From positions 1,074-65,073 of the forward strand of contig JBEKKR010000004.1 in the NCBI GenBank assembly GCA_050010635.1: a stretch of DNA of 64,000 nt, read 5' to 3'. Positions 15,298-63,996 of this stretch are shown here, piece after piece (position 1 is the stretch's first letter; every line of letters begins with the position of its first letter). Made by a program: the position numbers and the translations under genes. A model generated the notes under the pieces. The model saw only the letters and a list, made by a program, of their open reading frames with translations. It was not told the origin of the DNA and made no database searches. The DNA is from Candidatus Limnocylindrales bacterium (GTDB lineage Bacteria; Chloroflexota; Limnocylindria; Limnocylindrales; CSP1-4).

Positions 15298-15642
15298 ATG
15301 GCCACGAACCCCGCAAACCAGCCGACCGCGATCAACGCCGACAGAGATGCCGGCGTCGTCATCATCGATTGGGCCGACGGCCACCGCAGCGTCTTCGACA
15401 CGCTCTCGCTGCGGCTGCTCTGTCCGTGCGCGTACTGCCAGGGCGAGGCCGGCCGGCCGGGCTGGCTCGACACGAACCCCACCCTGACCTCGGACCAGAC
15501 GCAGCTCGTCGGCATGCGCCTGGTCGGCCAGTACGCCGTGGCGCCGACCTGGGCCGACGGCCACGACACGGGCTACTACACGTTCGAGGTGCTGCGTGCG
15601 AACTGCCCGTGCGATACGTGCTCGGCGGATCGACCGGCGTAG
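15298..15642 (+). CDS. DUF971 / GBBH-N-like domain protein
   Basis: WADGH...LRLLCPCAYC...VGQYAV..W.DGHDTGYY pattern. Confidence 0.88.
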   Translation: MATNPANQPTAINADRDAGVVIIDWADGHRSVFDTLSLRLLCPCAYCQGEAGRPGWLDTNPTLTSDQTQLVGMRLVGQYAVAPTWADGHDTGYYTFEVLRANCPCDTCSADRPA

Positions 15643-15818
15643 CCGGGCCCCAGCGCCACGGGTTCAATCTTCCGGACGAGGCCGCTTTGCTCACAACGAC
15701 CGATCCGAACGGGAACAGGAGGGTCGACAATCCGACTTGAGCCTCGCGCTCGGCCGCCCGCGGCTGCATGACCGGCGCCGCGAACCAGCCATCGCCAACC
15801 AAACTCGGAGGATCCGCA

Positions 15819-16166
15819 ATGATCATCGCCACCACTCCCTACCTGCCGGGCTATCGCGTGACCGAGGCCAAGGGCCAGGTATTCGGCCTCGTCGTCCGGA
15901 GCCGCGGTTTCGCCGGCAACTTCGCCGCCGGCCTGCGCTCTCTCGTGGGCGGCGAGATCCACGAGTACACCGAGCTGCTCGAGGACACCCGTCGCCAGGC
16001 GATCGACCGCATGGTCCAGAACGCGACGCTCATGGGCGCCAACGCGGTCCTCTCAATGCGCTTCGACTCATCCGAGATCGGCAACACGATGTCCGAGATC
16101 GTGGCCTACGGGACGGCCGTCGTGGTAGTGCCCGACGCGGCCGCCGGGCGCCCCGTCGGCGAGTAG
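15819..16166 (+). CDS. YbjQ/UPF0145 family protein
   Basis: GLRSLVGGEIHEYTELL, GANAV and EIVAYGTAV motifs; GGAGG SD. Confidence 0.92.
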   Translation: MIIATTPYLPGYRVTEAKGQVFGLVVRSRGFAGNFAAGLRSLVGGEIHEYTELLEDTRRQAIDRMVQNATLMGANAVLSMRFDSSEIGNTMSEIVAYGTAVVVVPDAAAGRPVGE

Positions 16167-16208
16167 AGGCGGGCAATCCGCTGCAGCTTCGCCGCCGGAG
16201 AGTAGGCC

Positions 16209-16496
16209 ATGCCTGACGTCTACTCCTGGATCGCCGTGGCCGTCGCCATCCTGGCGTTCGTCCTCGGCATCCAGGTCTTTGGCGTGGTCGGCGGATTCGT
16301 CCTGATCGTGGCCGCCCTGTCCATCCTGACCGTCGCCGCCACCTTCGTAGGAGCTCGGGCGCGCCGCAGGCTCGCCCGGCGGGACCCGAGATTCCAGCGG
16401 ACCGACGAGGCCTTCCACGATCCCAGCACCGGCCGCGTGACCAGGGTCCACGTCGACCCGGCTTCCGGCGAGCGTCGCTACTGGCGAGATCCCTGA
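16209..16496 (+). CDS. Hypothetical two-TM membrane protein, paralogue A
   Basis: Two hydrophobic helices, then PRFQRTDEAFHDPSTGRVTRVHVDPASGERRY. Confidence 0.75.
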   Translation: MPDVYSWIAVAVAILAFVLGIQVFGVVGGFVLIVAALSILTVAATFVGARARRRLARRDPRFQRTDEAFHDPSTGRVTRVHVDPASGERRYWRDP

Positions 16497-16501
16497 GGAC
16501 G

Positions 16502-16849
16502 ATGCTGAACCCAACGATCCAAGTCCTGGCATTCGTCGTGGGCAGCCTGTCCTTTCTGGGCGGCCTCGCGGAGCTGAGCGTGTCCGGTGGCGACACCGGG
16601 TCCGGCGTCGTCGGAATCCTGTTCGGCACGGGGATCATGGTCGCGGCCGTCATCCAGAGGAATCGGTACCGCTCGGAGGCGGCGGAACGCGGCCACGACA
16701 CGCCCGGCCCGGGCGGCGGCGAGAGCGGCTACCTGGAGCCACGCTTCCTGCCCACCACGGAGGTCTTCACGGACCCGACCAGCCGCCGGGTGATGCGCGT
16801 GTTTGTCGATCCGCGCTCCGGCGAGCGCCGCTATCGGGCCGAAAGCTAG
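16502..16849 (+). CDS. Hypothetical two-TM membrane protein, paralogue B
   Basis: Two hydrophobic helices, then PRFLPTTEVFTDPTSRRVMRVFVDPRSGERRY. Confidence 0.75.
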   Translation: MLNPTIQVLAFVVGSLSFLGGLAELSVSGGDTGSGVVGILFGTGIMVAAVIQRNRYRSEAAERGHDTPGPGGGESGYLEPRFLPTTEVFTDPTSRRVMRVFVDPRSGERRYRAES

Positions 16850-17031
16850 CGTCCCGAGCCGCCGATCGACGCCCGAGACCGGACGACCCGGGCGGGCAAT
16901 CGGCGCCCTCTGGTCCGCATCGCCCTGCGAGCCCGGAGACGCTCCTATTGCGTACTGGCGCCGACTGTCGAGAATAGGCCGATGCACTCGACGGCCGTCG
17001 AGGTGAAAGTGCAGAGGCGCAGGCAGAGAAC

Positions 17032-49276: not shown

Positions 49277-51434
49277 ATGGAGTCGTGGCCGGGCAGGCCC
49301 TATCCGCTCGGGGCTACGCCCGGTCCGGACGGCACCAACTTCGCCGTCGCCTCGAGCGTCGCCTCGGGCGTGACGCTGTGTCTCTTCGACGAAGCGGGCG
49401 CCGAAGTGCAGCTCTCCTTACAGGAGGAGGACGCCGGCATATGGCACGGTTTCGTGCCGGCCGTCGGCCCCGGCCAGCGCTACGGGTACCGCGTATCTGG
49501 TCCGTACGAACCTGCCCGGGGCCTCCGCTGCAACCCGAACAAGCTCCTTCTGGATCCGTACGCCCGGGCCGTCGTCGGTGATGTTGACTGGGTCGACGCG
49601 GTCTTCGGCTACGTGCCGGGGACGCCGGACGGGTTCAGCGTCCTGGACTCGGCGCCGCACGTGCCGCGGAGCCTCGTCGTGGACGGCGGCTTCGACTGGG
49701 GGTCCGACGCGCCGCCGGCCATCCCCTACTCCGACAGCATGCTCTATGAGATTCACGTCAAGGGTTTCACCCAGCTGCATCCCGGCGTCCCGGCGGATGT
49801 GCGCGGCACCTATGCCGGCCTCGCCTCCCCCGCCGCGCTCGATCACCTGACGAGCCTGGGCGTCACAGCCGTGGAGTTGATGCCGGTCCATCACCACGTC
49901 GACGATGGGTATCTCCGGTCCAGGGGCCTCGCCAACTACTGGGGCTACAACAGCCTGGGCTTGTTCGCGCCGCACGCGGGCTATTCGGCCGAGGTCAGGG
50001 CCGGTCGTCCCGGCGGCCAGGTCGCCGAGTTCAAGGCCATGGTGAAGGCCATCCATGCTGCCGGACTCGAGGTGATCCTCGACGTCGTCTTCAGCCATAC
50101 CGCGGAGGGCGACCATCTAGGCCCCACGCTCTCATTCCGCGGGCTCGACAACCCGGCCTACTACCGGCTCGTGGCCGACGACCCGCGCTACTACTTCGAC
50201 ACCACGGGCACGGGCAACTCCCCCAATGTGGACAATCCGACCTGCCTGCGGCTGATCATGGATTCGCTGCGGTACTGGGCTTCCGAGATGCACGTCGACG
50301 GCTTCCGCTTTGACCTAGCGGTGGCCCTGGCCCGGGAGCACGGCAGCTTCGATCGCGTCTCGGCCTTCTTCGACCTGATCTCGCAGGACCCGGTCGTGTC
50401 GCGACTGAAGCTCATCGCCGAGCCCTGGGACGTCGGCCAGCCCGACAGCTACGACCCTGGGAGATTTCCCGTCTTCCTGGAGCGAGTGGAACGGCAGGTA
50501 TCGCGATACCGTCCGCGACTTCTGGCGGGGCCAGGACGGAACCCTGCCGGACCTGGCCAGGCGCCTCACCGGCTCGGCCGACCTGTACGGCCCGTCGCGG
50601 CGGCGGCCCAACGCCTCCATCAATTTCGTGACCAGCCACGACGGCTTCACCCTGCGCGATCTGGTTTCGTACGAGCAGAAGCGCAACGAGGCGAACGGCG
50701 AGTCGAACCAGGACGGGACCGACGACAACCGCTCCTGGAACTGCGGGGCCGAAGGACCGACGGACGACCCGGCCATCCTCGAGCTGCGCGCCCGGCAGTC
50801 GCGGGCGATCCTGGCCACGCTTCTGCTGAGCCTCGGCGTGCCGATGCTGCTCGGCGGCGACGAGCTCGGCCGAACGCAGCGGGGCAACAACAACGCGTAC
50901 TGCCAGGACAACGAGGTCGGCTGGTTCGACTGGGCATCCGCCGACCGCGAGCTGCTCGCCTTCACCCGGGCGCTGATCGCCACGCGGCGCCGCCACCACG
51001 CCCTGCGACGCCGCCGCTTCGCCAGCGGCGCGCTCCGGGACGACATCCGGTGGTTCACGCCGGCAGGCATGGCGATGACCGACTCCGATTGGGGCGCCGG
51101 CTGGACGCGCAGCTTCGTGGCCTATCTGGACGGAACCCGGCACGCGGACCGGGACGACCGGGGCCGTCCGATGCTGGACGACGATCTGCTCGTAGTCTTC
51201 AGCGGCTGGTGGGAGCCGCTGCCGTTCACCGTCCCGGATGTCGGCGCGCCGCGAGCATGGCAGTGCGAACTCGACACCTTCACGGGATCCGGCGGTGCGA
51301 CGGCTGTCGCCGCAGGGGCCACGTTCGTCGTGGAGTCGAGGTCGGTGGTCCTGCTGAAATCGGCTCTTCTGCCTGACCCGACCGGCACGAGTCATCGGCG
51401 TGAGCCGATGGCTCGAAAACCTGCCGCACCCTGA
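49277..51434 (+). pseudogene. glgX: Glycogen debranching enzyme GlgX with +1 frameshift at 50455-50457
   Basis: 5' frame has PLGAT, YEIHVKGFT, NYWGY, DGFRFDLA and IAEPWD; 3' frame has WSEWNGRYRD, HDGFTL.DLVSY and GNNNAYCQDN. Removing one C gives YDLGDFPSSWSEWN. Confidence 0.9.
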
Positions 51435-51458: not shown

Positions 51459-52742
51459 ATGACCTACCAGATCAGCATCGCCGCGGCCCGCCGGTTCCTG
51501 GCGATCCGCCACCTCCTCGCGCCGCCGCGCGCATTGCCCGCCACGCCGGAGAGCGTCCTGGCCGTGGTGGATCGGTTGGGCTCGCTCCAGTTCGATCCGC
51601 TCGAAGTCGCCGGCCGCAACCACGACCTGGTGCTGCAGGCTCGCATCGCCGGCTACCGCCGCGAGATCACCGACGAGCTGCTCTACGGCCGCCGCCTGCT
51701 CTTCGAGGCCTACAACAAGTCCCTCAATCTGCTGCCAACCCGCGATCTGCCCTACTACCGGATTACATGGAATGACTTCGCCGGCGGGTGGGCCGGGCGG
51801 CTCGTCGGCGAGCAGGCCGTTCTGGCCGAGAAGATCCTGGCGGAGATAACCGCCCAGGGGCCCAGGTGCTCGAGCGACTTCGAGCGAGAGGCCGCGATCG
51901 AGTGGTGGTGGGGTCCTACGAGCGCGGTCCGGGCGGTACTCGAAGCGCTCGCGGTCTCGGGCAGGCTGAGCCTGGCCCGGCGTGAGGGCAATCGCCGCTA
52001 CTACGACCTGACCGAGCGGCTCTACCCCGCAGATCTCCTCGAGACCCGGATACCGGAGAGGGAACAGAGGTGCCACAGGCTGCTGTCGCGCTACCGCGGC
52101 CACGGACTGCTGGGCGCGGGCGGAAGCGGCGAGCTCTGGCTGGGCACGGCCCCGCCGGCCGTCCGGGCCGAGATGCGCCGCGACCTGCTCGGTCGCGGCG
52201 AGCTCGTGGCGGTGACGGTCGAGGAGATGCGCGGCGAGCGCTTCGTCGTCGGCGACGAGCTGCCGCTGCTGGCGCAGGCCGAACGCGAGGTGGCCGCGGA
52301 GTCGGCCGGCAGCCCGGTCCGGCCGGGAGACGCCGAGCCCGGCTGCAGCTTCGTGGCCCCGCTCGACCCGCTGATGTGGGATCGCGGCGCGCTCGAGCCG
52401 TTCTACGGCTTCGAGTACCGCTGGGAGGTCTACACGCCCGCGGCGAAGCGCCGCTGGGGTTACTACGTCCTGCCGATTCTCTTCGGCGATCGGCTGGTCG
52501 GCCGCATCGAGCCCCGCATCGATCGCGCCGCCCGGACGGTCCGCATCCTCGGCCTGGGCTGGGAGCCCGGCTTCGACCCGGTGGAGGCTCCGGGCTTCGT
52601 CCCGGCATTCGCCGCGGCCCTCAACGCCTACCTCGCGTTCAGCGCGGCGGAAGCCGTGGTCGCTCCCCCGGGGCCCGCCAACCGGGCGCTGTTCCGGGCG
52701 ATTACGGGCGAGGTTCGCGTCAAGCGGCCGCCGGCCGGCTAG
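51459..52742 (+). CDS. HTH_42 / YcaQ-like DNA glycosylase
   Basis: LQFDPL (QxD motif), PLDPLMWDR, FEYRWEVYTP and GYYVLPIL motifs. Confidence 0.9.
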   Translation: MTYQISIAAARRFLAIRHLLAPPRALPATPESVLAVVDRLGSLQFDPLEVAGRNHDLVLQARIAGYRREITDELLYGRRLLFEAYNKSLNLLPTRDLPYYRITWNDFAGGWAGRLVGEQAVLAEKILAEITAQGPRCSSDFEREAAIEWWWGPTSAVRAVLEALAVSGRLSLARREGNRRYYDLTERLYPADLLETRIPEREQRCHRLLSRYRGHGLLGAGGSGELWLGTAPPAVRAEMRRDLLGRGELVAVTVEEMRGERFVVGDELPLLAQAEREVAAESAGSPVRPGDAEPGCSFVAPLDPLMWDRGALEPFYGFEYRWEVYTPAAKRRWGYYVLPILFGDRLVGRIEPRIDRAARTVRILGLGWEPGFDPVEAPGFVPAFAAALNAYLAFSAAEAVVAPPGPANRALFRAITGEVRVKRPPAG

Positions 52743-52867: not shown

Positions 52868-53395
52868 ATGAGGCCAATCGCCATCGGCAGCGATGAGGCC
52901 GGCTTCCAGCTCAAGGAGGAGCTGAGGCGCCACCTCGAGGCGGCGGGATACGAGGTCACGGACTACGGCTGCCACTCGCCTGAACCGGTCGATTACCCGG
53001 ACGTGGCGATCGAAGTGGCAACCGCCGTCGCTGCCGGCCGCCACGATCGAGCGGTGCTCATCTGCGGCACCGGGATCGGCATGGCCATCGCCGCCAACAA
53101 GGTCCCCGGCGTGTATGCCGCCAATGCCCACGACCCTTACTCCGCGGCCCGGGCGCGCATGTCCAACAACGCCCAGGTCCTGTCTCTCGGGGCGCGGGTG
53201 GTCGGTACCGAGCTGGCCAAGACCCTCGTCGACGTCTGGCTAAAGGCCGAGTTCGCCGGCGGCGGCTCCCTGCGCAAGGTCCAGAAGATCCAGGCGGCCG
53301 AGCGAAAGGCCGGGGCGGCCCCGGCTTTATCGGGCTCGGACGCGGCGTCTCAGGCAGCTCCCCCGAAGGCTTCGCACAAGGAGCGACCGAAATGA
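52868..53395 (+). CDS. RpiB-family sugar-phosphate isomerase (DerI-like)
   Basis: GSDEAG, VDYPD, ICGTGIGM.IAANKV.G and SNNAQVL motifs; operon with dhaK, dhaL and a TIM-like gene. Confidence 0.9.
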   Translation: MRPIAIGSDEAGFQLKEELRRHLEAAGYEVTDYGCHSPEPVDYPDVAIEVATAVAAGRHDRAVLICGTGIGMAIAANKVPGVYAANAHDPYSAARARMSNNAQVLSLGARVVGTELAKTLVDVWLKAEFAGGGSLRKVQKIQAAERKAGAAPALSGSDAASQAAPPKASHKERPK

Positions 53396-54420
53396 CGGCG
53401 GCCCAAGGAACCGGCGCTTATCGAGGCTTCTACAAGAAGCTCATCAACGATCCGTTCGACGCGGTCGACGAAGCCCTGGAAGGCTTCGCCGGAGCCCATT
53501 CGGACCTGGTGACCCTGGCCGCGCCACGGGTGATCGCCCGCCGTGTCCCCGCTTCCGGTAAGGTCGGCTTCGTGGTCGGCGGCGGATCCGGGCACGAGCC
53601 GGCGTTCGCCGGTTACGTCGGCCACGGCATGGCCGACGCGGCCGCCTGCGGCAACGTCTTCGCGTCGCCGCCGCCCGACGTGATCCTCGCCGCGATCCAC
53701 GCCGCTTCCACCGGGAAGGGCGTGCTGATGGGCTACGGCAACTACGCCGGCGACGTGCTCAACTTCGGCCTCGCGGCCGAGTTCGCCGCGGCCGAGGGCA
53801 TCGAGGTCCGGGAGATCCGGGTATCCGACGACGTCGCCTCGGCCGGACCGGGCGAACGCGACAAGAGGCGAGGCATCGCCGGCGACATCATCGTCTTCAA
53901 GTGCGCCGGCGCCGCCGCCGAACGAGGCGACTCGCTCGGCGAAGTCGAACGCATCGCCGTCAAGGCCAACCTGGCGACGCGGAGCATGGGCGTCGCCCTG
54001 GCCGCGTGCGAGGTTCCGGGCACGGGGCGCCTCACCTTCGAGCTGGCCGCCGACGAGATCGGGATCGGCATGGGTGTGCACGGCGAGCCAGGGATCCGCC
54101 GCGGGCCGCTCGAGCCGGCCGACGCCATCGCCGGCGCGCTCGTCGCGGCGATAACAGGAGAGATGGACCGCGCAGAAAGCCGGGACGTCGCCCTGCTGGT
54201 CAACGGCCTGGGAGCCACGGCCACGATGGACCAGTACGTCTTCTATCGGGGCGCTCGCCGGGCCCTCGAGGCGGCGGGCTTCCGGGTCACCCACAGCTAC
54301 GTCGGCGAGTACATCACCTCGCTCGAGATGGCCGGGGCATCGGTCACGGTCACCGCCCTGGACGGCGAGCTTGCCGAGCTGCTCGACGCCCCGGCCCGAA
54401 CCACGCGCTTCGTCCAATGA
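53392..54420 (+). CDS. dhaK: DhaK-family ketose kinase substrate-binding subunit
   Basis: GGGSGHEP, GNVFASP, NYAGD, GMGVHGEPG and TSLEMAG motifs. Confidence 0.93.
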   Translation: MTAAQGTGAYRGFYKKLINDPFDAVDEALEGFAGAHSDLVTLAAPRVIARRVPASGKVGFVVGGGSGHEPAFAGYVGHGMADAAACGNVFASPPPDVILAAIHAASTGKGVLMGYGNYAGDVLNFGLAAEFAAAEGIEVREIRVSDDVASAGPGERDKRRGIAGDIIVFKCAGAAAERGDSLGEVERIAVKANLATRSMGVALAACEVPGTGRLTFELAADEIGIGMGVHGEPGIRRGPLEPADAIAGALVAAITGEMDRAESRDVALLVNGLGATATMDQYVFYRGARRALEAAGFRVTHSYVGEYITSLEMAGASVTVTALDGELAELLDAPARTTRFVQ

Positions 54421-55082
54421 GCGCCGGCCGGCTCCGCAACTGCATCCTGGCCGCTGCAGATGCCGTCGAAGCGAGTCGCGATGAGTTGGGCCGGCTCGAC
54501 GCAGTTGCCGGCGACGGTGACCACGGCCTGACGATGGCTCACGGGGCTCGGGCAGTCCGCCTGGCGATCAAGGAGAACCCGGATGCGCCGCCGGCCGATC
54601 TGCTGGCGAAGGTGGCGACGGCGATGGGCTCGATCGGCGGCGCCATCGGACCGATCTACGCCACGGCCCTGCTCAAGGTGGCTGGCGTGGTGCGGGCCTC
54701 GGCCCCCGGCGACGGCGCGACCGTAGTCCAGCTGCAAGCGTGTGCCGACGCGGCCGTCACCGCGGTCATGGCGCTCGGTCACGCCAAACCCGGCGACAAG
54801 ACGGTGCTCGACGCGATGGCGCCGCTGGCGGAGAGCCTGCGTGCATCCGAGGCGGAGGGCGCATCCGTGGATGCGGCGCTCGTTCGGGCTCGCGACGCCG
54901 CTCGGGCGGGTGCGGCGGCCACCGCCGGGATGATCGCGTCGATCGGCCGCGCGGCGCGGCTCGGCGAGCAATCGCGTGGCACGGCGGATGCCGGCGCCAC
55001 GTCGTTCGCGCTGATCGTCGGCGCGGCGATCGACTCGTATCTCGAGAGCGAGGGCCCACGGTCGCCCGGAGCTGCGGCGTGA
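54417..55082 (+). CDS. dhaL: DhaL-family kinase nucleotide-binding subunit
   Basis: LDAVAGDGDHG, GDKTVLDA, GRA and DAGA motifs. Confidence 0.92.
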   Translation: MSAGRLRNCILAAADAVEASRDELGRLDAVAGDGDHGLTMAHGARAVRLAIKENPDAPPADLLAKVATAMGSIGGAIGPIYATALLKVAGVVRASAPGDGATVVQLQACADAAVTAVMALGHAKPGDKTVLDAMAPLAESLRASEAEGASVDAALVRARDAARAGAAATAGMIASIGRAARLGEQSRGTADAGATSFALIVGAAIDSYLESEGPRSPGAAA

Positions 55083-55828
55083 TCCGGCCTCTCGTCGGCA
55101 CTAGCTGGAAGATGAACCTGACGCCCAGTCGGGCCGCCGTCTACTGCGCCGCCCTTCGGTCCCTGGTCGCGGACGTCGACGACCGCACGCTCTTCGTCCT
55201 GCCGCCGTTCCCGTCCCTGCCATGCGCCCGCGACCTCCTGGCCGGCAGCAACGTCGCCTGGGGCGCCCAGGACGTCCACCCCGACGTCGAAGGCGCTCAC
55301 ACAGGCGACGTCTCGGCGTCGATGCTCGCCGATCTCGGCTGTACCTTCGTGGAGGTCGGCCATCACGAAAGGCGGCGCGACCATCACGAGGACGACGACC
55401 TGATCGCCTCGAAGGTCGCGGCCATCCACCACTGGGGCATGACCGCCATCCTGTGCGTCGGCGAGGAGCACCGGACGACGCCCGAGGCGGCCCGTGCGCA
55501 TGTCCTCGGCCAGCTTCGCTTCGTGGAGGATTTCGATCCGGCGAGGCTGGTCGTCGCGTATGAGCCCGCCTGGGCCATCGGCGTGGGGGCCGAGCGCGCG
55601 CCGTCCGAGTGGATCGGGGCGATGCACGAGGCCATCCACGAGCGACTGGCAGAAGCGGCCGGGGGCCGAGCCGCCATCGCCGTCATCTACGGCGGCAGCG
55701 TGGACGCCGCAGGAGCCCGCGAAATCCTGGCCTCACCCGGCGTGGATGGACTCTTCGTCGGCCGCTACGCGCTCACGGCCGAGGGTTTCGCGGAGATCGC
55801 CCACACGCCGCTGCGGCCCGAACGCTAG
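55079..55828 (+). CDS. TIM-family isomerase, LerI/EryH-like (tetrulose-phosphate isomerase)
   Basis: GTSWKMN (versus housekeeping GNWKMN), GHHERR, AYEPAWAIG, YGGSV and DGLFVGR motifs. Confidence 0.85.
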   Translation: MIRPLVGTSWKMNLTPSRAAVYCAALRSLVADVDDRTLFVLPPFPSLPCARDLLAGSNVAWGAQDVHPDVEGAHTGDVSASMLADLGCTFVEVGHHERRRDHHEDDDLIASKVAAIHHWGMTAILCVGEEHRTTPEAARAHVLGQLRFVEDFDPARLVVAYEPAWAIGVGAERAPSEWIGAMHEAIHERLAEAAGGRAAIAVIYGGSVDAAGAREILASPGVDGLFVGRYALTAEGFAEIAHTPLRPER

Positions 55829-55833
55829 GCCGC

Positions 55834-55858
55834 GAGAGGCCGGCCAGGGGCCTCTCTT
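55834..55858 (+). terminator. Probable terminator after the TIM-like gene
   Basis: gagaggcc...ggcctctc followed by TT. Confidence 0.5.
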
Positions 55859-55874
55859 GGTGCCAATCGGCGGT

Positions 55875-55910
55875 TGGCAAGGTCTTGACTTCGCTGGCAC
55901 AATCTTTCCG
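55875..55910 (+). promoter_or_regulatory. Conserved promoter/operator element, copy 1
   Basis: TGGCAaGgtCTTGACttcGcTGGCACAATCTTTCCG; 29/36 identical to the reverse complement of 62857-62892. Confidence 0.8.
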
Positions 55911-56068
55911 TATCAGGCCAAGCCGAGGCCGGGAGAAGATCCCCAGGTCTCACCGGGCCGCCGTCGCCTTGTCTCGCTGAAACCGGGCCGGAAGCCGGCG
56001 GTTGGCGGTACCGAGACCCCCAATTGCCTCCGTCGCGGCGGGCGGGGGCCGCATGCAGGGACCGGAAG

Positions 56069-57148
56069 ATGAAGATTCTGGTTGTTGGGGACTCCTACTG
56101 CCCATGGCGGGCGCTGGGCCCGTCGATCGATCGCCTGGCCGAGACACACGAGGTCACATGCATCGACGTCGTCGACGAGCCGGGCTGGCGTCCCTCCACG
56201 CCGTCGGAAGGCAGGATCAAGGAATTGCTGGGCAGCCCGCGCCAGATCATCGAACGGCTCGACGGCCACGAGGTCTTGATAGTCCAGGGCGCGCCTGTTA
56301 CGGACGCCGTGATGGACGCCTCGCCGAAACTGAGGCTCGTGTGCGTCGCCCGCGGCGGCCCCGTGAACGTGGATGTCGCCGCGGCCACTGAGCGCGGCAT
56401 CGCCGTCGTGACGACTCCCGGAAAGAACGCACAGGCAGTTGCCGAACTCACGATCGCCTTCATGGTGATGCTGGCCCGGCGCCTGCCCGAGGTCGTCCGG
56501 TTTCTCGAGGGCGGCGGCGAACTGGCCCGCGACAACTACGAGGGCGCCAAGTGGATGGGCCACGACCTGGAGGGACACGTCCTGGGTCTGATCGGTTACG
56601 GCCAGATCGGCCATCGCGTCGCCAGGATCGCCAAAGCCATGGACATGCGGGTCATCGTCTCGGACCCGTTCGTGCCGGCAGCCCGGATCGAAGCCGACGG
56701 CGCCGAACCGGTGGACCTGGACACGCTCCTGGCGACCGCGGACTACGTCTCGATCCACGCCCGGGTCACCGCCGAGAACAAGGGCATGATCGGGCGGGCC
56801 CAGATCGAGCGGATGAAGAAGGGCGCCTGCCTGATCAACACGGCCCGTGACACGCTCGTGGACGAGGACGCGGTCTACGATGCGCTCCGTTCCGGGCACC
56901 TGGCTGGCGGCGGATTCGACGTGGTCCGCATCCCCGACCTATCGATCCCGGCTGAGCTCGGCCGGCGTCACCGCCTGTACGACGCCCCGAACGTCGTCAT
57001 CGCCACTCACATCGGCGGCGCCACGTACGAAACAATGGGACACGGCGGCGAGATGGCCGCCGCGGAGATCGGCCGGCTGGCCGCCGGCGAGCCATTCGTC
57101 AACCTGGCCAATCCGGCCGTGCTCGAGAAGGTGGGGAACCATGCCTGA
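56069..57148 (+). CDS. D-isomer-specific 2-hydroxyacid dehydrogenase family protein
   Basis: RGGPVNVD, PGKNA.AVAE, GYGQIG, INTAR and HIGGAT motifs. Confidence 0.9.
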   Translation: MKILVVGDSYCPWRALGPSIDRLAETHEVTCIDVVDEPGWRPSTPSEGRIKELLGSPRQIIERLDGHEVLIVQGAPVTDAVMDASPKLRLVCVARGGPVNVDVAAATERGIAVVTTPGKNAQAVAELTIAFMVMLARRLPEVVRFLEGGGELARDNYEGAKWMGHDLEGHVLGLIGYGQIGHRVARIAKAMDMRVIVSDPFVPAARIEADGAEPVDLDTLLATADYVSIHARVTAENKGMIGRAQIERMKKGACLINTARDTLVDEDAVYDALRSGHLAGGGFDVVRIPDLSIPAELGRRHRLYDAPNVVIATHIGGATYETMGHGGEMAAAEIGRLAAGEPFVNLANPAVLEKVGNHA

Positions 57149-58703
57149 ACCGCATGTCATGGCAATCGACCTGGGCACGGGGAGTTGTCGGGCGCTCGTA
57201 TTCGACCGCGGCGGCCACCAGGTGGCGATGGCCCAGCGAGAGTGGTCCCATCCACCGCTTCCCGGCGCCCCGGGCTCGCAGCAGTTCGAGACGGCCCGCA
57301 ACTGGCCGCTCATCTGCGAGTGCACCCATGAAGCCCTCGCCAAGAGCGGCCTGCGGGCCGATGCCATCAAGGGCGTGTCCAGCACGGCGATGCGCGAGGG
57401 GATGGTCCTGTACGACGCCGGCGGCACGGAGATCTGGGCTTGCCCAAACGTTGACTCCCGCGCCGGGGACGAGGCTACGCAGCTGATCTCCTCGGGCGAC
57501 GCGCGCAAGATCTACGACACCGGCGGCGACTGGGTCTCGATCACTTCCCCTGCCCGATTCCTCTGGATCAAGAACCACCAGCCGGACGTGTTCGCTCGAA
57601 TCGCCCACATGGGCATGCTCAGCGACTGGGTCCTGACCAGGCTCTCTGGCAAGTACGCCACCGATCCGTCGATCGGCGCCAGCTCCGGCCTCTTCGACCT
57701 GGCGAAGGCCGATTGGTCGCCGGAGCTGATCCGGCTGATCGGCCTCGAGCCGGAGATCTTCCCGAAGGTCATGCAGCCGGGCACGGTCCTGGGCGACGTG
57801 ACCGCCAAAGCGGCCGCCGAGACCGGGCTCGCGGCCGGGACGCCGGTCGTGGTCGGCGGGGCGGACACCCAGCTCGGCCTGCTCGGCATCGGCCGGACCA
57901 CGCCCAACGCCTTCACGCTCGTAGGCGGCAGCTTCTGGCAGAGCACCGTCGTCGTGGACAAGCCTCTGATCGACCCGGAGGCGCGCCTCCGCTCACTGTG
58001 CCACGTGATGCCGGGCCAGTGGATGGTCGAAGGCATCGGCTTCTACTGCGGCCTGACGATGCGCTGGTTCCGCGACGCCTTCTGCGATCTGGAGAAAGCG
58101 CAGGCCGCCGAGCGCGGAGTGGATCCGTTCGTGGTGATGGAAGAGGAGGCGGCAACAGTGCCGCCGGGCTCGAGCGGCGTCCTGCCGATCTTCGGCAACA
58201 TCATGAACGCCAAACGGTGGGTCCAGGCCTCGCCGTCGTTCGTCCAGTTCGACATCGACAACCCGGGAACATCGGGCCGCAAGGAGTGCATCCGGGCCAT
58301 CGAGGAGAGCGCCGCGTACATCGCCCTCGGACACCTCCGGATCATCGAGCGCCTCACCGGCTACAAGTTCGAGGAGATCGTCTTCACCGGCGGCGGCGCG
58401 AAGGGGCACCTCTGGCCCCAGGTCATCGCCGACGTCCTGGGCGTCGCCGTCAAGGTCCCGCAGGTCAAGGAATCCACCGCCCTCGGGGCGGCTCTCTGCG
58501 CCGGCCTGGGAGCCGGCATCTACAAGGACCTGGCCGAAACGGCCGCCGAGGTCGTCCGTTTCGAGCGAACGTTCCGGCCCGATCCGGTCGCCTACGCCGC
58601 CTATCTCTCCCTGTTCGAGAAGTGGCACGCCGTCTACGGCCGTTTCCTCGAGATGGGCGACGCCGGCCTGCTGCGTCCGCTCTGGAAACCCGCCGGAGCC
58701 TGA
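57141..58703 (+). CDS. lsrK: Autoinducer-2 kinase-like FGGY kinase
   Basis: [16 protein letters not shown]...PGSQQF...[38 protein letters not shown] and LWKPAG all resemble enterobacterial LsrK. Confidence 0.85.
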
Positions 58704-58785
58704 CAGCGAGAGGGCCCGGCCCCTATCCAAACCAAACCGCGTGATCGCCGTCCCGGCCCACGGACAAGGCAGAAAGAGGAGCGAG

Positions 58786-59682
58786 ATGCCAGAAGCCGAT
58801 CTCACCGAAGAGAAGAACTTCCACGAGGACATTCCGCAGCGCAACAGCGCCTTCTTCCTGAAGGGCGCCGGGGCATACGACTGGGGCATGCAGAACCGCC
58901 TGGCCCGCGTCTTCAACCCCGACAGCGGCAAGACGGTCATGCTGGCCATCGACCACGGCTACTTCATGGGGCCCACATCCGGCCTCGAGCGGATCGACGT
59001 CAACATCGTTCCGCTGGTCCCGTATACCGACGCCCTCTTCTGTACGCGCGGCATCCTGCGCACGGTCGTCCCGGCGGCGACACGGACGCCCAACGTCCTG
59101 CGGGCCAGCGGCGGTCCCTCGATCCTAAAGGAGCTCTCGAACGAGCAGATCGCGATGGACATGGAGGATGCCGTCCGCCTCAACAGCTGTGGTGTCGGCG
59201 TCCAGGTATTCGTCGGCGGCGAGTTCGAGACCCAGTCGATCAACAACATGACGCGCCTGGTCGATGCGGGCTATCGCGTCGGCCTGCCGGTCCTGGGCGT
59301 AACCGCCGTCGGCAAGGACATGGTCCGAGACGCGAAGTACTTCCGGCTCGCGACACGCATCTGCGCCGAGCTCGGCGCCCAGATGGTCAAGACCTACTAC
59401 GTGCCCGATGGCTTCGAGACCGTCACCGCCTCCTGCCCGGTCCCGATCGTGATGGCGGGCGGCAAGAAGCTGCCCGAGATCGACGCCCTGACGATGGCCT
59501 ACCGCGCCGTCCAGGAGGGCGCGGCCGGCGTGGACATGGGCCGGAACATCTTCCAGAGCGAGTCGCCCGTGGCGATGATCCAGGCCGTCCGAAAGGTCGT
59601 CCACGAGGCGATGAAGCCCGAACACGCACTCGAGCTGTTCAAGACGCTTCGGTCCGAATTCAAGCAGCCCGTCGGGGCCTGA
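58786..59682 (+). CDS. lsrF: LsrF-type thiolase (class I aldolase fold)
   Basis: [46 protein letters not shown] and [10 protein letters not shown] motifs. Confidence 0.93.
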
Positions 59683-59686
59683 CGAC

Positions 59687-60415
59687 GTGGCCACGACCGC
59701 ACACCTGCCGTTCCTCGACGGCCGGGCTCATCTGACCATCGGCATCAACACCGCCGACCTGGGACACCTGGCCGACGAGGTCCACGTGCTCGAGGACGCG
59801 CGAGCCGAGATCGTCCACATCGACGTGATGGACGGCGTCTTCTGCCCCATGACCACGGTCGGGCCGCCCTTCATTAAGGCGATCAAGACGCCGCTCCTCA
59901 AGGATGCCCACCTGATGATCGTCGACCCCATCGAGAAGGTGGCCGACTATGTGGCCGCCGGCGCCGACATCATCACCTTCCAGGCCGAATCCACGCGCCA
60001 TCCGCACCGCGTCCTGCAGGTCCTGGGCAAGGCCGAGAACGCCAACGACCCGGCCCGCGGCATCATCCGAGGAGTGGCGCTCAACCCCGGCACGCCCGTG
60101 TCGGCTATCGAGCCGCTCCTGGACGAGCTGGAGTACGTGCTCATCCTCGCCGTCAACCCCGGCTGGGGCGGGCAGAAGTTCATCGAGTCGACCGAGCGGC
60201 GCCTGGCCGAGGCGAGGGAGCTGATCAGGCGGTCCGGCCGCCAGATCATGCTCGGCGCCGACGGCGGGATCACCAAGGAGAACATCGCCCGCGTCGCGGC
60301 CATGGGCCCGAACCTGATCGTCACCGGCAGCGCCGTCTTCGACGGCAAGACGCCGGCCGACAACGCCCGCTACATGCTCGACCAGGTCCGGGGCGGAGCA
60401 GCGGTGACGACGTAG
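59687..60415 (+). CDS. Ribulose-phosphate 3-epimerase family protein (LsrE-like)
   Basis: HIDVMDG.FCP..TVGP, DAHLM, NPG.GGQ and DGGI motifs; follows lsrF. Confidence 0.85.
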   Translation: MATTAHLPFLDGRAHLTIGINTADLGHLADEVHVLEDARAEIVHIDVMDGVFCPMTTVGPPFIKAIKTPLLKDAHLMIVDPIEKVADYVAAGADIITFQAESTRHPHRVLQVLGKAENANDPARGIIRGVALNPGTPVSAIEPLLDELEYVLILAVNPGWGGQKFIESTERRLAEARELIRRSGRQIMLGADGGITKENIARVAAMGPNLIVTGSAVFDGKTPADNARYMLDQVRGGAAVTT

Positions 60416-60434
60416 GCCGCCGCTACCGGACGCG

Positions 60435-60476
60435 AAGGGACGGGGCCCGAGGAATCGAGTCCCGTCCTTGTCTTTT
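60435..60476 (+). terminator. Intrinsic terminator between convergent operons
   Basis: aagggacggg...cccgtcctt followed by gtctttt. Confidence 0.7.
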
Positions 60477-60484
60477 GCCGGAGA

Positions 60485-61255
60485 TCAGAGCTCGGCGTTG
60501 ACGATGAAGCCGGCGTCGACGAGCAGCGTCGCGCAGGTCACGTAGCTCGCGTCGTCCGAGAGCAGGTACGTGATAGCGCCCGCCATCTCCTCGGGCTCGC
60601 CAGGGCGATGGATGGCGATCCGGTCGATGTAGTACTTCCAAACCTCGGGCGCCGCATCGAACATCGGGGCGCTCATGTTGGTCTTGATCCAGCCCGGTTC
60701 GACGGCGTTGACCCGGATCCCGTGCTCGCCGAGGTTGCAGCCGAGGGCCTTGGCAAGCATCGAGATCGCGCCCTTCGTGCCGCAGTAGGCGGTCTGGTAG
60801 GGGGCGCCGACGTGGGCGGAGATCGAGCTCGTGCAGCAGATGGCGCCGCCGTGGCCCTCCTTGATCATCTGCTTGGCGCCCTCGGTCACGACGACCCAGG
60901 TGCCGCGGACGTTGGTCTCCATCAGGTTGTTGAAGTCTTCGAGCGAGGTCTCGTCCCACTTCATGAATGGGTTGATGGCCGCGTTGGAGACGACGTAGTC
61001 GAGCCGGCTGCCCCGTTCGGCCACCTCGTGGACCATGCGGATGACCTGCTCGGGGTCGCGCATGTCGGCCACGACCGGGAAGCCCTCCCCGCCCGCCTCC
61101 TTGATGCGGCGGAGCGTTTCGGTGGGATCGCCGGTCGGCCGCTGATTGACGCCCACCAGCGCTCCTTCCGCCGCAAGCCGCACCGCCGTCGCCTGCCCGA
61201 TTCCATTGGTGGCCCCGGTGACCAGCGCGACCTTACCGACGAATCGCTTTTCCAT
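60485..61255 (-). CDS. Short-chain dehydrogenase/reductase
   Basis: TGATNGIG, SNAA, YCGTK and PGWIKT motifs. Confidence 0.93.
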   Translation of the reverse strand: MEKRFVGKVALVTGATNGIGQATAVRLAAEGALVGVNQRPTGDPTETLRRIKEAGGEGFPVVADMRDPEQVIRMVHEVAERGSRLDYVVSNAAINPFMKWDETSLEDFNNLMETNVRGTWVVVTEGAKQMIKEGHGGAICCTSSISAHVGAPYQTAYCGTKGAISMLAKALGCNLGEHGIRVNAVEPGWIKTNMSAPMFDAAPEVWKYYIDRIAIHRPGEPEEMAGAITYLLSDDASYVTCATLLVDAGFIVNAEL

Positions 61256-61318
61256 GGCAAATCCTCCGAGTGGTCATGCGATGAGTGCCGTGGTAGATGC
61301 CGGTTGCGGGACGCTGGA

Positions 61319-62077
61319 TCAGTGCATGCCGCGGCCCCCCGCGACGATGAGCAGCTCACCGGTGATGAAGCTCGCCTCGTCCGAGGCGAGGAAGACGGCC
61401 GAGGCTGCGACGTCGTCGGGCGTGCCCCAGCGCTTGAGCGCGGTCTCCTCGAGGATACGCTGCTGGATTGCCGGGTCTATCTCCTCGACCATGTCCGTCC
61501 GGATCCAGCCAGGGCAGATCGCGTTGATCCGTATCTGAGGTCCGAGCGCGAGCGCCATGGCCTTGGTCAGGCCGTTCATGCCGGCCTTCGAGACGACGTA
61601 TTCCGTGAAACGCATCGCCGAGGGGTGGTAGAGGCCGGAGTTGGACGACATGTTGATGATCGAGCCGGCGCCCTGGCGGATCATCACCGGCGCCACCTCC
61701 TTGGAGCACAGGTAGGCGCCCTTGAGGTTGACGTCGATCGTGATGTCCCAGTCGTCCTCGTCGGTCTCGAGGACGCCCTTGGCGACCATCACCCCGGCGT
61801 TGTTCACGAGGATGTCAATGCGCCCGAACCGCTCGAGGGTCTGCTCGACCAGGCGCCGGACGTCCGCGCTCCTCGATACGTCCGCCTGTACGGCCATCGC
61901 GGCGCCGCCCGAGGCTTCTATGCCGGCGACGACGACGGCCGCGTTCTTCGACCCCTGGGTGTAGTTGACGACGACGGCCGCACCCTCGGCCGCGAACCGC
62001 TCCGCGACGGCGCGCCCGATGCCACGCGACGCGCCGGTGACTATTGCGACCTTGCCCGCCAGACGCCCTTCGACCAT
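61319..62077 (-). CDS. Short-chain dehydrogenase/reductase
   Basis: TGASRGIG, NNAG, YVVSK and PGWIRT motifs. Confidence 0.93.
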   Translation of the reverse strand: MVEGRLAGKVAIVTGASRGIGRAVAERFAAEGAAVVVNYTQGSKNAAVVVAGIEASGGAAMAVQADVSRSADVRRLVEQTLERFGRIDILVNNAGVMVAKGVLETDEDDWDITIDVNLKGAYLCSKEVAPVMIRQGAGSIINMSSNSGLYHPSAMRFTEYVVSKAGMNGLTKAMALALGPQIRINAICPGWIRTDMVEEIDPAIQQRILEETALKRWGTPDDVAASAVFLASDEASFITGELLIVAGGRGMH

Positions 62078-62253
62078 AGCCGTCTCCTCCTAGCCCTGCC
62101 CCCAGTCCGACCGATCGAACGTGGCTCGAACCCGACCTCGGCCGCGTCGCGCCGGCTCGTCACCCGGACGTGCCCCCTGGCGACGTGCCCCGCGAGGGTC
62201 GTCAAGAGGGGCGATCGACGGGTCCCCGCTTGCGGCCTCAGGCTGAGCCCGAT

Positions 62254-62763
62254 CTACTTCTTGGCGGGAGGGTACTGGCGAACAGGGGTCAGCTCGATGG
62301 CATGGCCACTGCCCGACTCCGCGACAAAGTGGGCGTCCTTGGCCGTGTCGAGGTAGTAGAACTCGATCGTGTCGCCGATCCGGCCGCCCATCGACATCTC
62401 ATACCCGGCGTCGCCGAAGCGCTTCTTGAAGGCGTCCGACTCCTCCTGGCTGTGACTCATCAAGGCGATGTGCTGGACGCCCTCGCCATACTTGGCCAGG
62501 TGCTCCTTGTAGATCGAGTCGCCTTCCAGCGGCTGGATCAGCTCGAAGATGAGCCCCGGCTGGACCTCGCATTCGGCGCCAATCATCGAGTAATTCGAAG
62601 CCTTGCCGTGGAGGTGCTGGTGGTGGAGCTTCGGCGGGACATGCTCGTAAACGTTCCAGGGACCCCACCCGAACATCTCGTTGTAGGTCTTCATCGCCGC
62701 GTCGATGTCCTTGACGACCACCGCGATCTGGCTGATCCGGTACGGATGTTCCGGCGGCTTCAT
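62254..62763 (-). CDS. VOC family protein (methylmalonyl-CoA epimerase-like)
   Basis: QIAVVVKDID, FELIQP.EG.SIY and GEGVQHIA motifs; GGAGG SD before ATG 62763. Confidence 0.88.
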   Translation of the reverse strand: MKPPEHPYRISQIAVVVKDIDAAMKTYNEMFGWGPWNVYEHVPPKLHHQHLHGKASNYSMIGAECEVQPGLIFELIQPLEGDSIYKEHLAKYGEGVQHIALMSHSQEESDAFKKRFGDAGYEMSMGGRIGDTIEFYYLDTAKDAHFVAESGSGHAIELTPVRQYPPAKK

Positions 62764-62856
62764 GGTTTCCTCCAGAAGATCGGTTCGAGTTGCTGGACTG
62801 GGTGCCATGGCGGCGACCTCGCCCTCCGGGGCCGGGGCCGGCCACGCGCCTTCGTT

Positions 62857-62892
62857 CGGAAAGATTGTGCCACCCGGGTCAAGGTCGTGCCA
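62857..62892 (-). promoter_or_regulatory. Conserved promoter/operator element, copy 2 (divergent VOC / regulator region)
   Basis: Reverse complement TGGCAcGacCTTGACccgGgTGGCACAATCTTTCCG; 16-bp exact match to 55895-55910. Confidence 0.8.
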
Positions 62893-63027
62893 TACTGGAT
62901 TGCGTCGCGATACGTAGCCTACGGATCAGGTACTGTCCAACCTCGAAACGCAAGCCGGCTCCAATGGCCCCGGCGGCGGCCTCGCGGGGTCGCCGCGGAC
63001 CAGGACCGGCCCGATTGGATGGGAGAC

Positions 63028-63996
63028 ATGGCGACAGGGCAGTCTTCACGAGCGACGCCGGCGGTCGGCGGCCGCGTCACGGACCTGCTGGTCGAGGTCG
63101 CGCGACGCTTCTACCTGGTCGGTGAGACTCAGGTCGAGATCGCCCGAGACCTGGGGCTGGATCCGTCGACGGTCTCGCGCTACCTGAAGCGTGCTCGCGA
63201 CGAGGGAGTCGTCCGCGTCGAGATCAGGCCGCCGATGCGCCGGAACGCCGATCTGGGCCGTCAACTGGCCGACCGCTTCCAGCTCTCCCGCGTCGTCGTG
63301 GCCGCGGTCGACGAAGAGGGCGACCTTTCCAGCCTGGCGGATGTCGCGGCGGACTACGTGGGCACGCTGCTCCGCAAGGGCATGAGGGTCGGGCTCGGCT
63401 GGGGATCGACCCTCTCGGCCACGGTCGGGTGCTTGGAGCCTGGCACCGTCTCCGACTTGATCATCACCCAGCTGGCGGGCGGCCAGAGCGACCCGGTGCC
63501 CGGCATGCAGGGCCACGAGCTGGCCCGCCACCTGGCGAGCCTCTACCCGGGCAGCCTGGTCCATTACCTCCATGCGCCCTCGATCGTGGATTCGCCGGCC
63601 ATCAAGGAAGCGATCCTGAGCGATTCTTCCGTGCAGGCAGCCCTGGCCATGGCTGCGCAGAGTGAGCTGGCCCTAGTCGGGATCGGCGAGATCGGCCCGA
63701 ACGCCACTCTCTTGCGGTCGTCGCAGGTGACTCGGGCCGACCTTGGATCGTTGATCTCGGACGGCGCCGTCGGCAGCATGAACGGGCGATTCTTCGGGCG
63801 GGACGGAAAGCCCGCCGGCCATCTCGACGAGCGGACCGTGGCGATCGAATGGGCCCAGCTGGATGCCATACCGATCGTCGTGGCCGTCGCCGCCGGCCTG
63901 CCGAAGGTCGAGGCGATCCTCGGCGCGCTCAAGTCCGGTTGTGTGGACGTCCTGATCACGGACGAGCCGACCGCCACCGCGCTGGCGGAGCGCTAG
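63028..63996 (+). CDS. SorC/LsrR-family sugar-binding transcriptional regulator
   Basis: ARRFY...TQ.EIA..LG....VSRYL..AR.EG.V HTH; GWGSTL, LVGIG and LITDE.TA motifs. Confidence 0.93.
   Translation: MATGQSSRATPAVGGRVTDLLVEVARRFYLVGETQVEIARDLGLDPSTVSRYLKRARDEGVVRVEIRPPMRRNADLGRQLADRFQLSRVVVAAVDEEGDLSSLADVAADYVGTLLRKGMRVGLGWGSTLSATVGCLEPGTVSDLIITQLAGGQSDPVPGMQGHELARHLASLYPGSLVHYLHAPSIVDSPAIKEAILSDSSVQAALAMAAQSELALVGIGEIGPNATLLRSSQVTRADLGSLISDGAVGSMNGRFFGRDGKPAGHLDERTVAIEWAQLDAIPIVVAVAAGLPKVEAILGALKSGCVDVLITDEPTATALAER

Follow-up and report, generated by a model that had tools for sequence, protein, structure and literature searches.

The window analysed here is a stretch of 64,000 nucleotides from a Candidatus Limnocylindrales bacterium (genome G000, positions G000:C4:1074-65073), whose assembly of 3.03 Mb is spread over 70 contigs, has about 70% G+C and is 96.4% complete. 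A run search found the stretch in many peat metagenome DNA runs, with no RNA run among those listed. From 52868 to 63996, the window carries a gene cluster in which a kinase and a thiolase of the Lsr type, the families that break down the signal autoinducer-2 (AI-2), lie beside an RpiB-family isomerase, a TIM-family isomerase and a dihydroxyacetone-kinase-family kinase, referred to below as the tetrulose-type genes. It makes up most of what is best read as a single accessory catabolic island, about 16.5 kb long. On this reading the island is not an AI-2 quorum-sensing locus, and its genes point to an undescribed sugar-breakdown route.

Gene families were assigned with Pfam and NCBIfam profiles, start codons were then chosen, and the twelve genes that the initial annotation had named were all confirmed in place. 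The cluster paralogues are written RpiB*, TIM* and LsrK*, and the cluster 2-hydroxyacid dehydrogenase is abbreviated HADH. The first operon, on the forward strand, encodes RpiB*, an additional RpiB-family sugar-phosphate isomerase (52868-53395; PF02502, 185.7 bits), DhaK (53392-54420; PF02733, 384.2 bits) and the nucleotide-binding subunit DhaL (54417-55082; PF02734, 134.2 bits) of a split dihydroxyacetone-kinase-family kinase, and TIM*, a diverged TIM-family isomerase with a GTSWKMN motif (55079-55828; PF00121, 207.8 bits). Successive overlaps of 4 bases make the four genes translationally coupled. DhaK scores 431.4 bits against NF011049, a model of the fused form, and stays under its cut-off. 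A gap of 240 bases (55829-56068, forward strand) separates this operon from a second, co-directional one. The second operon encodes HADH, a D-2-hydroxyacid dehydrogenase closest to the 3-phosphoglycerate dehydrogenases (56069-57148; PF02826, PF00389), the FGGY kinase LsrK* of the LsrK family (57141-58703; NF008187, 622.9 bits against a cut-off of 528), the LsrF-type thiolase of class I aldolase fold (58786-59682; NF006081, 496.3 bits against a cut-off of 297) and an LsrE-like, Rpe-family 3-epimerase (59687-60415; PF00834, 166.7 bits); HADH and the kinase overlap by 8 bases. A convergent third operon on the reverse strand encodes VOC, a small glyoxalase-fold protein (62254-62763; PF13669, 43.9 bits), and two short-chain dehydrogenases (SDRs), SDR2 (61319-62077; PF13561, 228.1 bits) and SDR1 (60485-61255; PF13561, 191.7 bits). 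A SorC/DeoR-type sugar-phosphate-sensing regulator, divergent from the VOC operon, closes the window on the forward strand (63028-63996; PF04198, 196.2 bits).

Contigs C1, C5, C18 and C28 carry further genes of the TIM, RpiB and Rpe families; those of the cluster are extra paralogues and not the housekeeping copies. The gap between the two forward operons contains a promoter-like site (55874-55903), a consensus match alone, with 1 observed against 0.6 expected from shuffles. The promoter and terminator scan as a whole gave one promoter-like and one terminator-like site, not above shuffles, and an inverted-repeat search of three intergenic regions returned one weak pair and defined no operator. 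Directly upstream of rpiB are genes for a GlgX-type debranching enzyme (49277-51376) and an AlkZ-like DNA glycosylase (51459-52742), a pair that also precedes the island in locus L005.

The initial annotation had pointed out that lsrG and lsrACDB are absent from the window, which was borne out, and had suggested a search beyond 64 kb for lsrG and a solute-binding protein. The following 19 kb of the contig (L002) hold no lsrG, lsrACDB or binding protein, but four further island genes appeared that its reader had not seen. They encode a pyridoxal-phosphate (PLP) enzyme whose closest solved relative is the D-threonine aldolase 4v15 (218.7 bits), a cyclase-family protein (PF04199), an APC amino-acid permease and a DUF4432 protein. 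As each of these turns up with the cassette in other loci too, the island extends from rpiB to the DUF4432 gene at L002:7429, about 16.5 kb. Beyond the island, large genes for flavin and Fe-S oxidoreductases (Pyr_redox_2, Fer4_20 and a nitrate-reductase-gamma-like membrane subunit) occupy L002:12394-18564.

Recurrence was examined in a set of genome loci from an LsrF search (the best 80 of 174 relatives) and a set of metagenome loci from a dehydrogenase-profile search (the best 80 of 535 relatives); with the locus of genome G430 added, these make 161 loci. Genes were mapped by tblastn with the window proteins and the E. coli Lsr proteins as queries, families outside this query set being uncounted. 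Among the 36 dehydrogenase loci of at least 10 kb, LsrK was present in 33, VOC in 29 (mostly directly upstream of the dehydrogenase), any SDR in 29, LsrF in 26 and the D-threonine-aldolase-like gene in 26. Rpe was counted in 19 (the Rpe-like gene follows LsrF in 19/36), the APC permease in 17, the cyclase in 15, SorC in 12 and DUF4432 in 10, and RpiB, the TIM paralogue, DhaK and DhaL in 6 each. LsrB and LsrG were found in none of the 36. The core of the cassette consists of VOC, the 3-phosphoglycerate-dehydrogenase-like dehydrogenase, a kinase of the LsrK clade, LsrF and the Rpe-like epimerase. Its companions are usually SDRs, the D-threonine-aldolase-like PLP enzyme, the cyclase-family hydrolase, the amino-acid permease, DUF4432 and a SorC regulator. 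At E <= 1e-3, no LsrG-like match occurs in any of the 161 loci, canonical actinobacterial lsrACDB-R-K-F loci included. Loci with canonical-looking lsrACDB-lsrR-lsrK-lsrF sets are L064, L067-L069, L073, L079 and L081, from the Actinomycetota Georgenia, Demequina, Timonella and Leucobacter, and no LsrG-like gene was found within 10 kb of them.

At least one tetrulose-type gene occurs in 9 of the 36 long loci, in several arrangements. The order RpiB-DhaK-DhaL-TIM followed by the dehydrogenase is found in the window and in L005, and L003 has RpiB-TIM followed by the dehydrogenase. L138 and L122 share the order DhaK-DhaL-TIM-RpiB-class II aldolase-dehydrogenase; L122, the G430 locus, belongs to another genus of the family, with 54-71% identity and an interposed EamA gene. 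TIM and RpiB are divergent from VOC-dehydrogenase in L131, L132, L137 and L140, and DhaKL occurs without RpiB or TIM in L145, L153 and L162. Within the genus, the genomes G006 and G025 also have RpiB and TIM*, with or without DhaKL, next to dehydrogenase-LsrK-LsrF, and the metagenome loci L131, L132, L137, L138 and L140 show the same linkage. RpiB* and TIM* are always paired where both are visible, and in L003, L131, L132 and L137 they occur without the DhaKL kinase. The linkage of Lsr-type and tetrulose-type genes proposed by the initial annotation therefore extends beyond one genome, with at least four gene orders, to another genus and to metagenome contigs. That annotation had named adjacency in this genome alone, with a normal lsrG/lsrACDB set just downstream, as the outcome that would speak against it; the opposite was found on both counts. 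Its picture of one hybrid unit stands as far as the recurring linkage goes, but the tetrulose-type genes, present in 9 of 36 loci and missing from the cassette of genome G017, are an optional add-on, and the real unit is larger.

The TIM paralogue follows the cassette closely. Among the 36 other genomes of the genus tested for both genes, it was found at 74% identity or more in three of the four with LsrK and in none of the 32 without, and in a draw of 400 genomes of the phylum it occurred in one (G430), which is among the three that carry LsrK. Two further genomes of the genus, G065 and G069, have a TIM paralogue at 55-57% identity with no LsrK found. The G065 locus (L006) reads LsrF-DeoR-SBP-ABC-ZnADH-RpiB-TIM*, so the isomerase pair accompanies LsrF even where the kinase is missing. 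TIM* is hence restricted to genomes with an LsrF cluster among those searched in the genus and phylum samples, apart from G069, whose contig ends before that point. In a Propionibacteriaceae locus (L071), LsrF lies between RpiB and a TIM-family gene, accompanied by a fused dihydroxyacetone-kinase-family kinase.

The known reaction of LsrF converts 3-hydroxy-2,4-pentanedione 5-phosphate (P-HPD) into dihydroxyacetone phosphate (DHAP) and acetyl-CoA. The window protein is 64% identical to E. coli LsrF (PDB 3gkf, 409.5 bits) and retains 10 of 10 named E. coli residues: Asp57, His58, Lys203, Tyr205, Gly226, Gly227, Asp251, Met252, Gly253 and Arg254. The source that names these active-site and phosphate-site residues (PMC2728841) places the Schiff-base carbonyl one position from the phosphate-bearing carbon. 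By family score and named residues, the window protein is thus a predicted P-HPD thiolase. A tree of 105 LsrF sequences follows taxonomy, with dehydrogenase-linked, canonical, Rpe-only and other contexts intermixed, and its starred branches force at least four changes of the dehydrogenase-linked label. This pattern fits one conserved reaction used by several pathways and argues against a longer substrate in the present context. LsrF occurs in further settings as well. In Acidobacteriota loci (L010, L019 and others, with LsrF at 10001), a fused class II aldolase-SDR comes after LsrF-Rpe and neither a kinase nor a transporter is close by, and in L010 the LsrF-Rpe set lies between glmM and pdxJ, a housekeeping-looking setting. 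In L057, from a metagenome-assembled genome of the Alphaproteobacteria, positions 4031-17770 contain a TRAP transporter, VOC, a DUF1537-type kinase, a class II aldolase, LsrF, YCII, an SDR, a RuBisCO-like protein and DhaK-DhaL.

LsrK* is 44.6% identical to E. coli LsrK and passes the NF008187 equivalog cut-off. A kinase tree of 60 rows unites the 48 dehydrogenase-linked kinases, LsrK* included, in a single clade (support 99), whose sister clade comprises 7 canonical and 2 other kinases. A kinase clade that stands apart, together with an intermixed LsrF tree, suggests the same exit reaction and a different entry substrate.

The other enzymes of the second and third operons are less narrowly assigned. 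The best solved relatives of HADH are 3-phosphoglycerate dehydrogenases (1wwk, 156.4 bits), and R232, E266 and H314, in the catalytic Arg/Glu/His columns, are invariant in nine orthologues. It reaches no NCBIfam equivalog cut-off; at 208.8 bits against the 454 of the SerA equivalog TIGR01327, it is a family member only. The Rpe-like protein, with its paralogue on C28, passes the subfamily model NF004076 (167.7 against 165) and lies under the cut-off of the equivalog TIGR01163. No NCBIfam equivalog cut-off is reached by SDR1, nor does SDR2 reach that of the GolD/DthD subfamily NF005309 (191.8 against 286). Among solved structures, VOC has no more than weak relatives (3gm5, 34.8 bits; methylmalonyl-CoA epimerases, about 24 bits). 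The SorC-type regulator is 28% identical to E. coli LsrR and falls far below the LsrR model NF011947 (108.3 against 486).

Reasoned from the known reactions, LerI, LsrG and TIM all catalyse a carbonyl shift between CH2OP-CHOH-CO-R and CH2OP-CO-CHOH-R, in which R is CH2OH, COCH3 or H. Hence TIM* stands next to LsrF in reaction space under any model. TIM* carries the motifs GTSWKMN, GHHERR and GLFVGRYAL. It retains Lys13, His95 and Glu167, but Asn11 is replaced by Ser and Ser96 by His, and loop 8 contains an Arg. In the housekeeping TIM on C1 the motifs are AANWKMN, GHSERR and AYEPVWAIGTG, its aligned part ending before loop 8, and loop 8 reads VGGASL in the TIMs of two other genomes of the genus (L097, L108). 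Ser occupies the Asn11 position in 115 of the 120 best TIM* homologues. Asn11 of TIM binds O1 of DHAP (PMC10249627), and Ser would leave room for a substituent at that end of the substrate. TIM* is closer to Thermus TIM (187.9 bits) than to the solved LerI 11ef (137.5 bits), and 3 of its 120 closest relatives carry the JGI label L-erythrulose 1-phosphate isomerase.

RpiB*, with paralogues on C5 and C18, had been described in the initial annotation as DerI-like. This was not supported: at 148.9 bits it stays below the cut-off of 240 of the DerI model NF051858, built on Rhizobiales, and passes the plain RpiB equivalog TIGR01120 (154.2 against 138.65). DhaKL has clear Dak1 and Dak2 domains, and neither models nor trees set erythrulose kinases apart within its family.

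Elsewhere in the genome, a tandem-ABM protein on contig C2 (G000:C2:122342-122998; L084:9343-10002) reaches 169.4 bits against the NCBIfam LsrG model when summed over its two domains (cut-off 135), and an iron-type alcohol dehydrogenase (Fe-ADH) gene adjoins it. An ABM gene of this type is present in 43 of 50 other genomes of the genus and is, in its single-domain form, a core gene; LsrK was found in 4 of 36 such genomes, and the C2 gene therefore does not belong to the island. All five genomes of the genus with LsrK, and G012, have the gene in doubled or fused form. The sole LsrB-like match of the genome (31% identity) lies in a rhamnose cluster on contig C6 and was rejected as an AI-2 binding protein. 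That cluster (L085, G000:C6:28000-47000) includes RhaM, a ribose-type ABC transporter, a class II aldolase-SDR fusion and a second SorC regulator, its neighbours being a 2-oxoacid dehydrogenase E1/E2 pair and a transaldolase. Neither LuxS nor an IF-2B-family gene was found in the genome at its 96.4% completeness. The sparse occurrence of LsrK (4 of 36 other genomes of the genus, 3 of 400 of the phylum) and the lack of LuxS were counted in favour of the accessory nature of the island.

Taken together, these observations are best accounted for, at somewhat less than an even chance, by one accessory catabolic island for an imported, probably amino-substituted compound that ends in the thiolysis of P-HPD to DHAP and acetyl-CoA, in which HADH, possibly with VOC or TIM*, replaces LsrG and the isomerases form a coupled optional module. 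Judging by gene content, the APC amino-acid-type permease would import the compound, and the D-threonine-aldolase-like PLP enzyme, the cyclase-family hydrolase, the SDRs and VOC would pre-process it. The product would be a small ketose, either 1-deoxy or similar to the AI-2 precursor 4,5-dihydroxy-2,3-pentanedione (DPD), whose terminal hydroxyl LsrK* would phosphorylate, as expected from its family, and whose C3 configuration the Rpe-like enzyme would set. By analogy with 3-phosphoglycerate dehydrogenase, HADH could oxidise the hydroxyl next to CH2-O-phosphate; acting on a 1-deoxypentulose 5-phosphate, it would yield P-HPD, the LsrF substrate, and make LsrG unnecessary. Alternatively, VOC, TIM* or both may perform an LsrG-like carbonyl shift. 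LsrF would then carry out its known reaction to DHAP and acetyl-CoA, as orthology and active-site identity suggest. The rpiB-dhaK-dhaL-TIM* operon would be a functionally coupled, optional side module of the island, in which the most likely task of TIM* and RpiB* is to move the carbonyl within short phosphorylated ketoses with the CH2OP-CO-CHOH-R scaffold of the LsrF substrate.

Several points weigh against this single-island reading. The role of HADH is drawn from analogy only, and the tandem-ABM protein on C2 may supply LsrG activity in trans. A 1-deoxy intermediate gives RpiB* no necessary step, which is a weak point, and RpiB*, above the plain RpiB cut-off, could simply be a ribose-5-phosphate isomerase. 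RpiB, TIM and DhaKL are all missing from 27 of the 36 long loci, and in G017, whose LsrF is a 97% match (aligned residues 57-297), the cassette lies at another genomic place without the isomerases. The strict pairing of RpiB* with TIM* in the absence of DhaKL is what a route from a tetrulose phosphate to erythrose-4-phosphate would predict. As to sampling, the dehydrogenase itself was the means of choosing 80 of the 90 dehydrogenase loci (for the long ones, 27 of 36), and related genomes are non-independent samples; for this latter reason, the case rests on the number of different arrangements and on no statistic. Support is weak for the deep nodes of the LsrF tree. The kinase tree is from FastTree alone and 38 of its 48 dehydrogenase-linked rows come from loci picked by the dehydrogenase, so that its informative point is that no canonical kinase falls inside that clade.

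Of the rival explanations, the one that survives best, while still unlikely, sees two independent pathways that are co-located and co-inherited: an erythrulose route to erythrose-4-phosphate, with DhaKL as the kinase, TIM* as LerI and RpiB* as DerI, and a separate Lsr-like cassette, with no shared intermediate. The two operons are indeed 240 bases apart with a promoter-like site between them, and the logic of kinase, LerI and DerI is established for tetritols (PMC10733421). G017 and, likewise, most of the distant loci have the Lsr-like part without the tetrulose-type part. However, the linkage persists through several rearranged gene orders and across genera (54-71% identity), RpiB* and TIM* occur without DhaKL in four loci, the island has no polyol-binding transporter, and TIM* was seen in no genome of the genus and phylum samples without an LsrF cluster, the short contig of G069 apart.

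Quite unlikely is the model in which the substrate is a C6 compound, a 1-deoxy-hexo-2,3-diulose such as 1-deoxyglucosone from an Amadori-type compound. The kinase would phosphorylate it at C6, an isomerase would move its carbonyl and LsrF would cleave it to acetyl-CoA and D-erythrulose-4-phosphate, which RpiB* would convert to erythrose-4-phosphate, with TIM* and DhaKL salvaging free or 1-phosphorylated erythrulose. This is the LsrF step that the initial annotation had proposed, and it is disfavoured by the 10 of 10 residues, the carbonyl register and an LsrF tree that is not split by context. The whole phosphate site and Lys203 are retained, and a C6 substrate would need a different register than the one described in PMC2728841; LsrF has no context-specific clade. 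Furthermore, in the 27 of 36 long loci without RpiB, TIM or DhaKL, erythrulose-4-phosphate would have no dedicated exit, RpiB* fails the DerI model, and TIM* is nearer to Thermus TIM than to the solved LerI. On the other side, the constant pairing of RpiB* with TIM* and their occurrence with LsrF clusters only, even without DhaKL, favours a tetrulose phosphate arising inside the pathway and keeps the model alive. The separate kinase clade, the amino-acid-type permease and the three relatives of TIM* named L-erythrulose 1-phosphate isomerase also fit it, as do SIS and xylose-isomerase-fold genes in L123, L168, L174 and L182. SIS and xylose-isomerase-fold families also serve the use of fructoselysine. 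The L123 locus (G165), at 1869-11311, holds APC permease, SIS, xylose-isomerase-fold, D-threonine-aldolase-like, SDR, cyclase, VOC, dehydrogenase and LsrK genes together, with no LsrF detected in its 20 kb.

Improbable as well, although it would reconcile the observations, is a wider reading in which P-HPD is a general hub with LsrF as its acetyl-CoA exit in many soil bacteria. In this island, deoxy-pentuloses would enter without LsrG, the PLP enzyme and the hydrolase perhaps setting them free from an imported amino-sugar or Amadori-type conjugate. HADH would oxidise C4 of 1-deoxypentulose-5-phosphate, and DhaKL, TIM* and RpiB*, acting on methyl homologues of the erythrulose phosphates, would convert 5-deoxypentulose-1-phosphate into 1-deoxypentulose-5-phosphate. 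If so, TIM* would be a TIM-fold enzyme with chemistry of the LsrG or LerI type on a new substrate, and the subfamily with N11S, GHHERR and the loop-8 Arg would represent a new isomerase specificity.

The last rival, true AI-2 scavenging, in which the kinase makes phospho-DPD, the LsrG step occurs in trans through the C2 tandem-ABM protein or through TIM* or VOC, LsrF finishes the breakdown and the rest of the island is unrelated, is very improbable, since against a kinase and a thiolase that pass the NCBIfam AI-2 equivalog cut-offs, a C2 protein that reaches the LsrG cut-off and the doubling or fusion of the ABM gene in each of the five genomes of the genus with LsrK stand the lack of an LsrB-type binding protein, lsrACDB and LuxS, an LsrB-like match confined to the rhamnose cluster, an ABM gene that is core to the genus when LsrK is rare, a kinase outside the canonical clade and a cassette tightly tied to the dehydrogenase, VOC, the PLP enzyme and the amino-acid permease.

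The single-island reading bears on how Lsr genes are annotated. LsrK and LsrF are widely taken in genomes and metagenomes as markers of AI-2 quorum quenching or sensing. If the kinase and the thiolase belong here, and in hundreds of soil and peat sequences, to a different pathway without a signal importer, such annotations over-call quorum sensing; the dehydrogenase profile alone matched 535 metagenome stretches. In addition, the roughly 15 enzymes of the island form a defined set for a catabolic route that was not met with in the literature searched, and may add an acetyl-CoA-yielding way of disposing of deoxy-ketoses. The large, unassigned TIM subfamily with a changed catalytic-site residue, found only with LsrF in the genomes searched, is a functional lead. 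The full-text literature searched, which covers few subscription journals and no supplements, does not describe an LsrK/LsrF cassette accompanied by such genes, and no paper in it joins LsrF, LsrK and a 2-hydroxyacid dehydrogenase. Among the matches listed, LsrF was not tied to the breakdown of deoxy-pentoses (5-deoxyribose, 1-deoxy-D-xylulose, 5-deoxyribulose), and nothing relevant appeared on glucosaminate with D-threonine aldolase.

Compared with known systems, the thiolase shares its fold and Schiff-base lysine with archaeal ADH synthase and the class I fructose-bisphosphate aldolases (DhnA/FbaB), and ADH synthase likewise acts on a methyl-ketone sugar phosphate. However, the window protein scores far lower against these enzymes (165.9 for TIGR01949, cut-off 299.45; 117.9 bits for PDB 2qjg), which makes it clearly of the LsrF type. 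The likeness to the Lsr branch of E. coli and Salmonella lies in a kinase and a thiolase above their cut-offs, an LsrF active site identical at 10 of 10 residues and a SorC-type regulator. The Rpe-like gene after LsrF mirrors the placement of lsrE in Salmonella. The island differs from that branch in having neither LsrACDB nor an adjacent LsrG, a regulator far under the LsrR cut-off, a kinase of the sister clade and a genome without LuxS, and it adds partners not known from Lsr, namely the 3-phosphoglycerate-dehydrogenase-like dehydrogenase, VOC, the SDRs, the PLP aldolase-like enzyme, the cyclase-family hydrolase and the APC permease.

Tetritol and erythrulose routes lead to erythrose-4-phosphate through LerK, LerI and DerI in Mycobacterium smegmatis and through EryH and EryI in Brucella, as described in PMC10733421. 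The first operon contains the same three families, a dihydroxyacetone-kinase-family kinase, a TIM-family and an RpiB-family enzyme, here translationally coupled. In contrast to those routes, the transporter of the island is an APC permease and not a polyol-binding ABC transporter, no dehydrogenase reaches the GolD/DthD cut-off and RpiB* stays under that of DerI. TIM*, with Ser at Asn11, GHHERR and the loop-8 Arg, belongs to a large subfamily that stands no closer to the solved LerI than to ordinary TIMs, and the genes for RpiB* and TIM* were found only beside LsrF clusters in the genomes searched.

A third comparison is suggested by gene content, with the DHAP shunt for 5-deoxyribose and methylthioribose, which uses a kinase, an IF-2B-family isomerase and a class II aldolase. 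A locus of Actinotalea (L075, 1633-11508) carries a binding-protein ABC transporter, an IF-2B-family isomerase, GntR, a class II aldolase-SDR fusion, a cupin, LsrF and a class II aldolase, a mix that resembles 5-deoxyribose/methylthioribose salvage genes joined to LsrF. The window genome has no detected IF-2B-family gene. Like that shunt, the island would turn a deoxy-pentulose phosphate into DHAP and a C2 unit, but the C2 unit would leave as acetyl-CoA through the thiolase and not as acetaldehyde.

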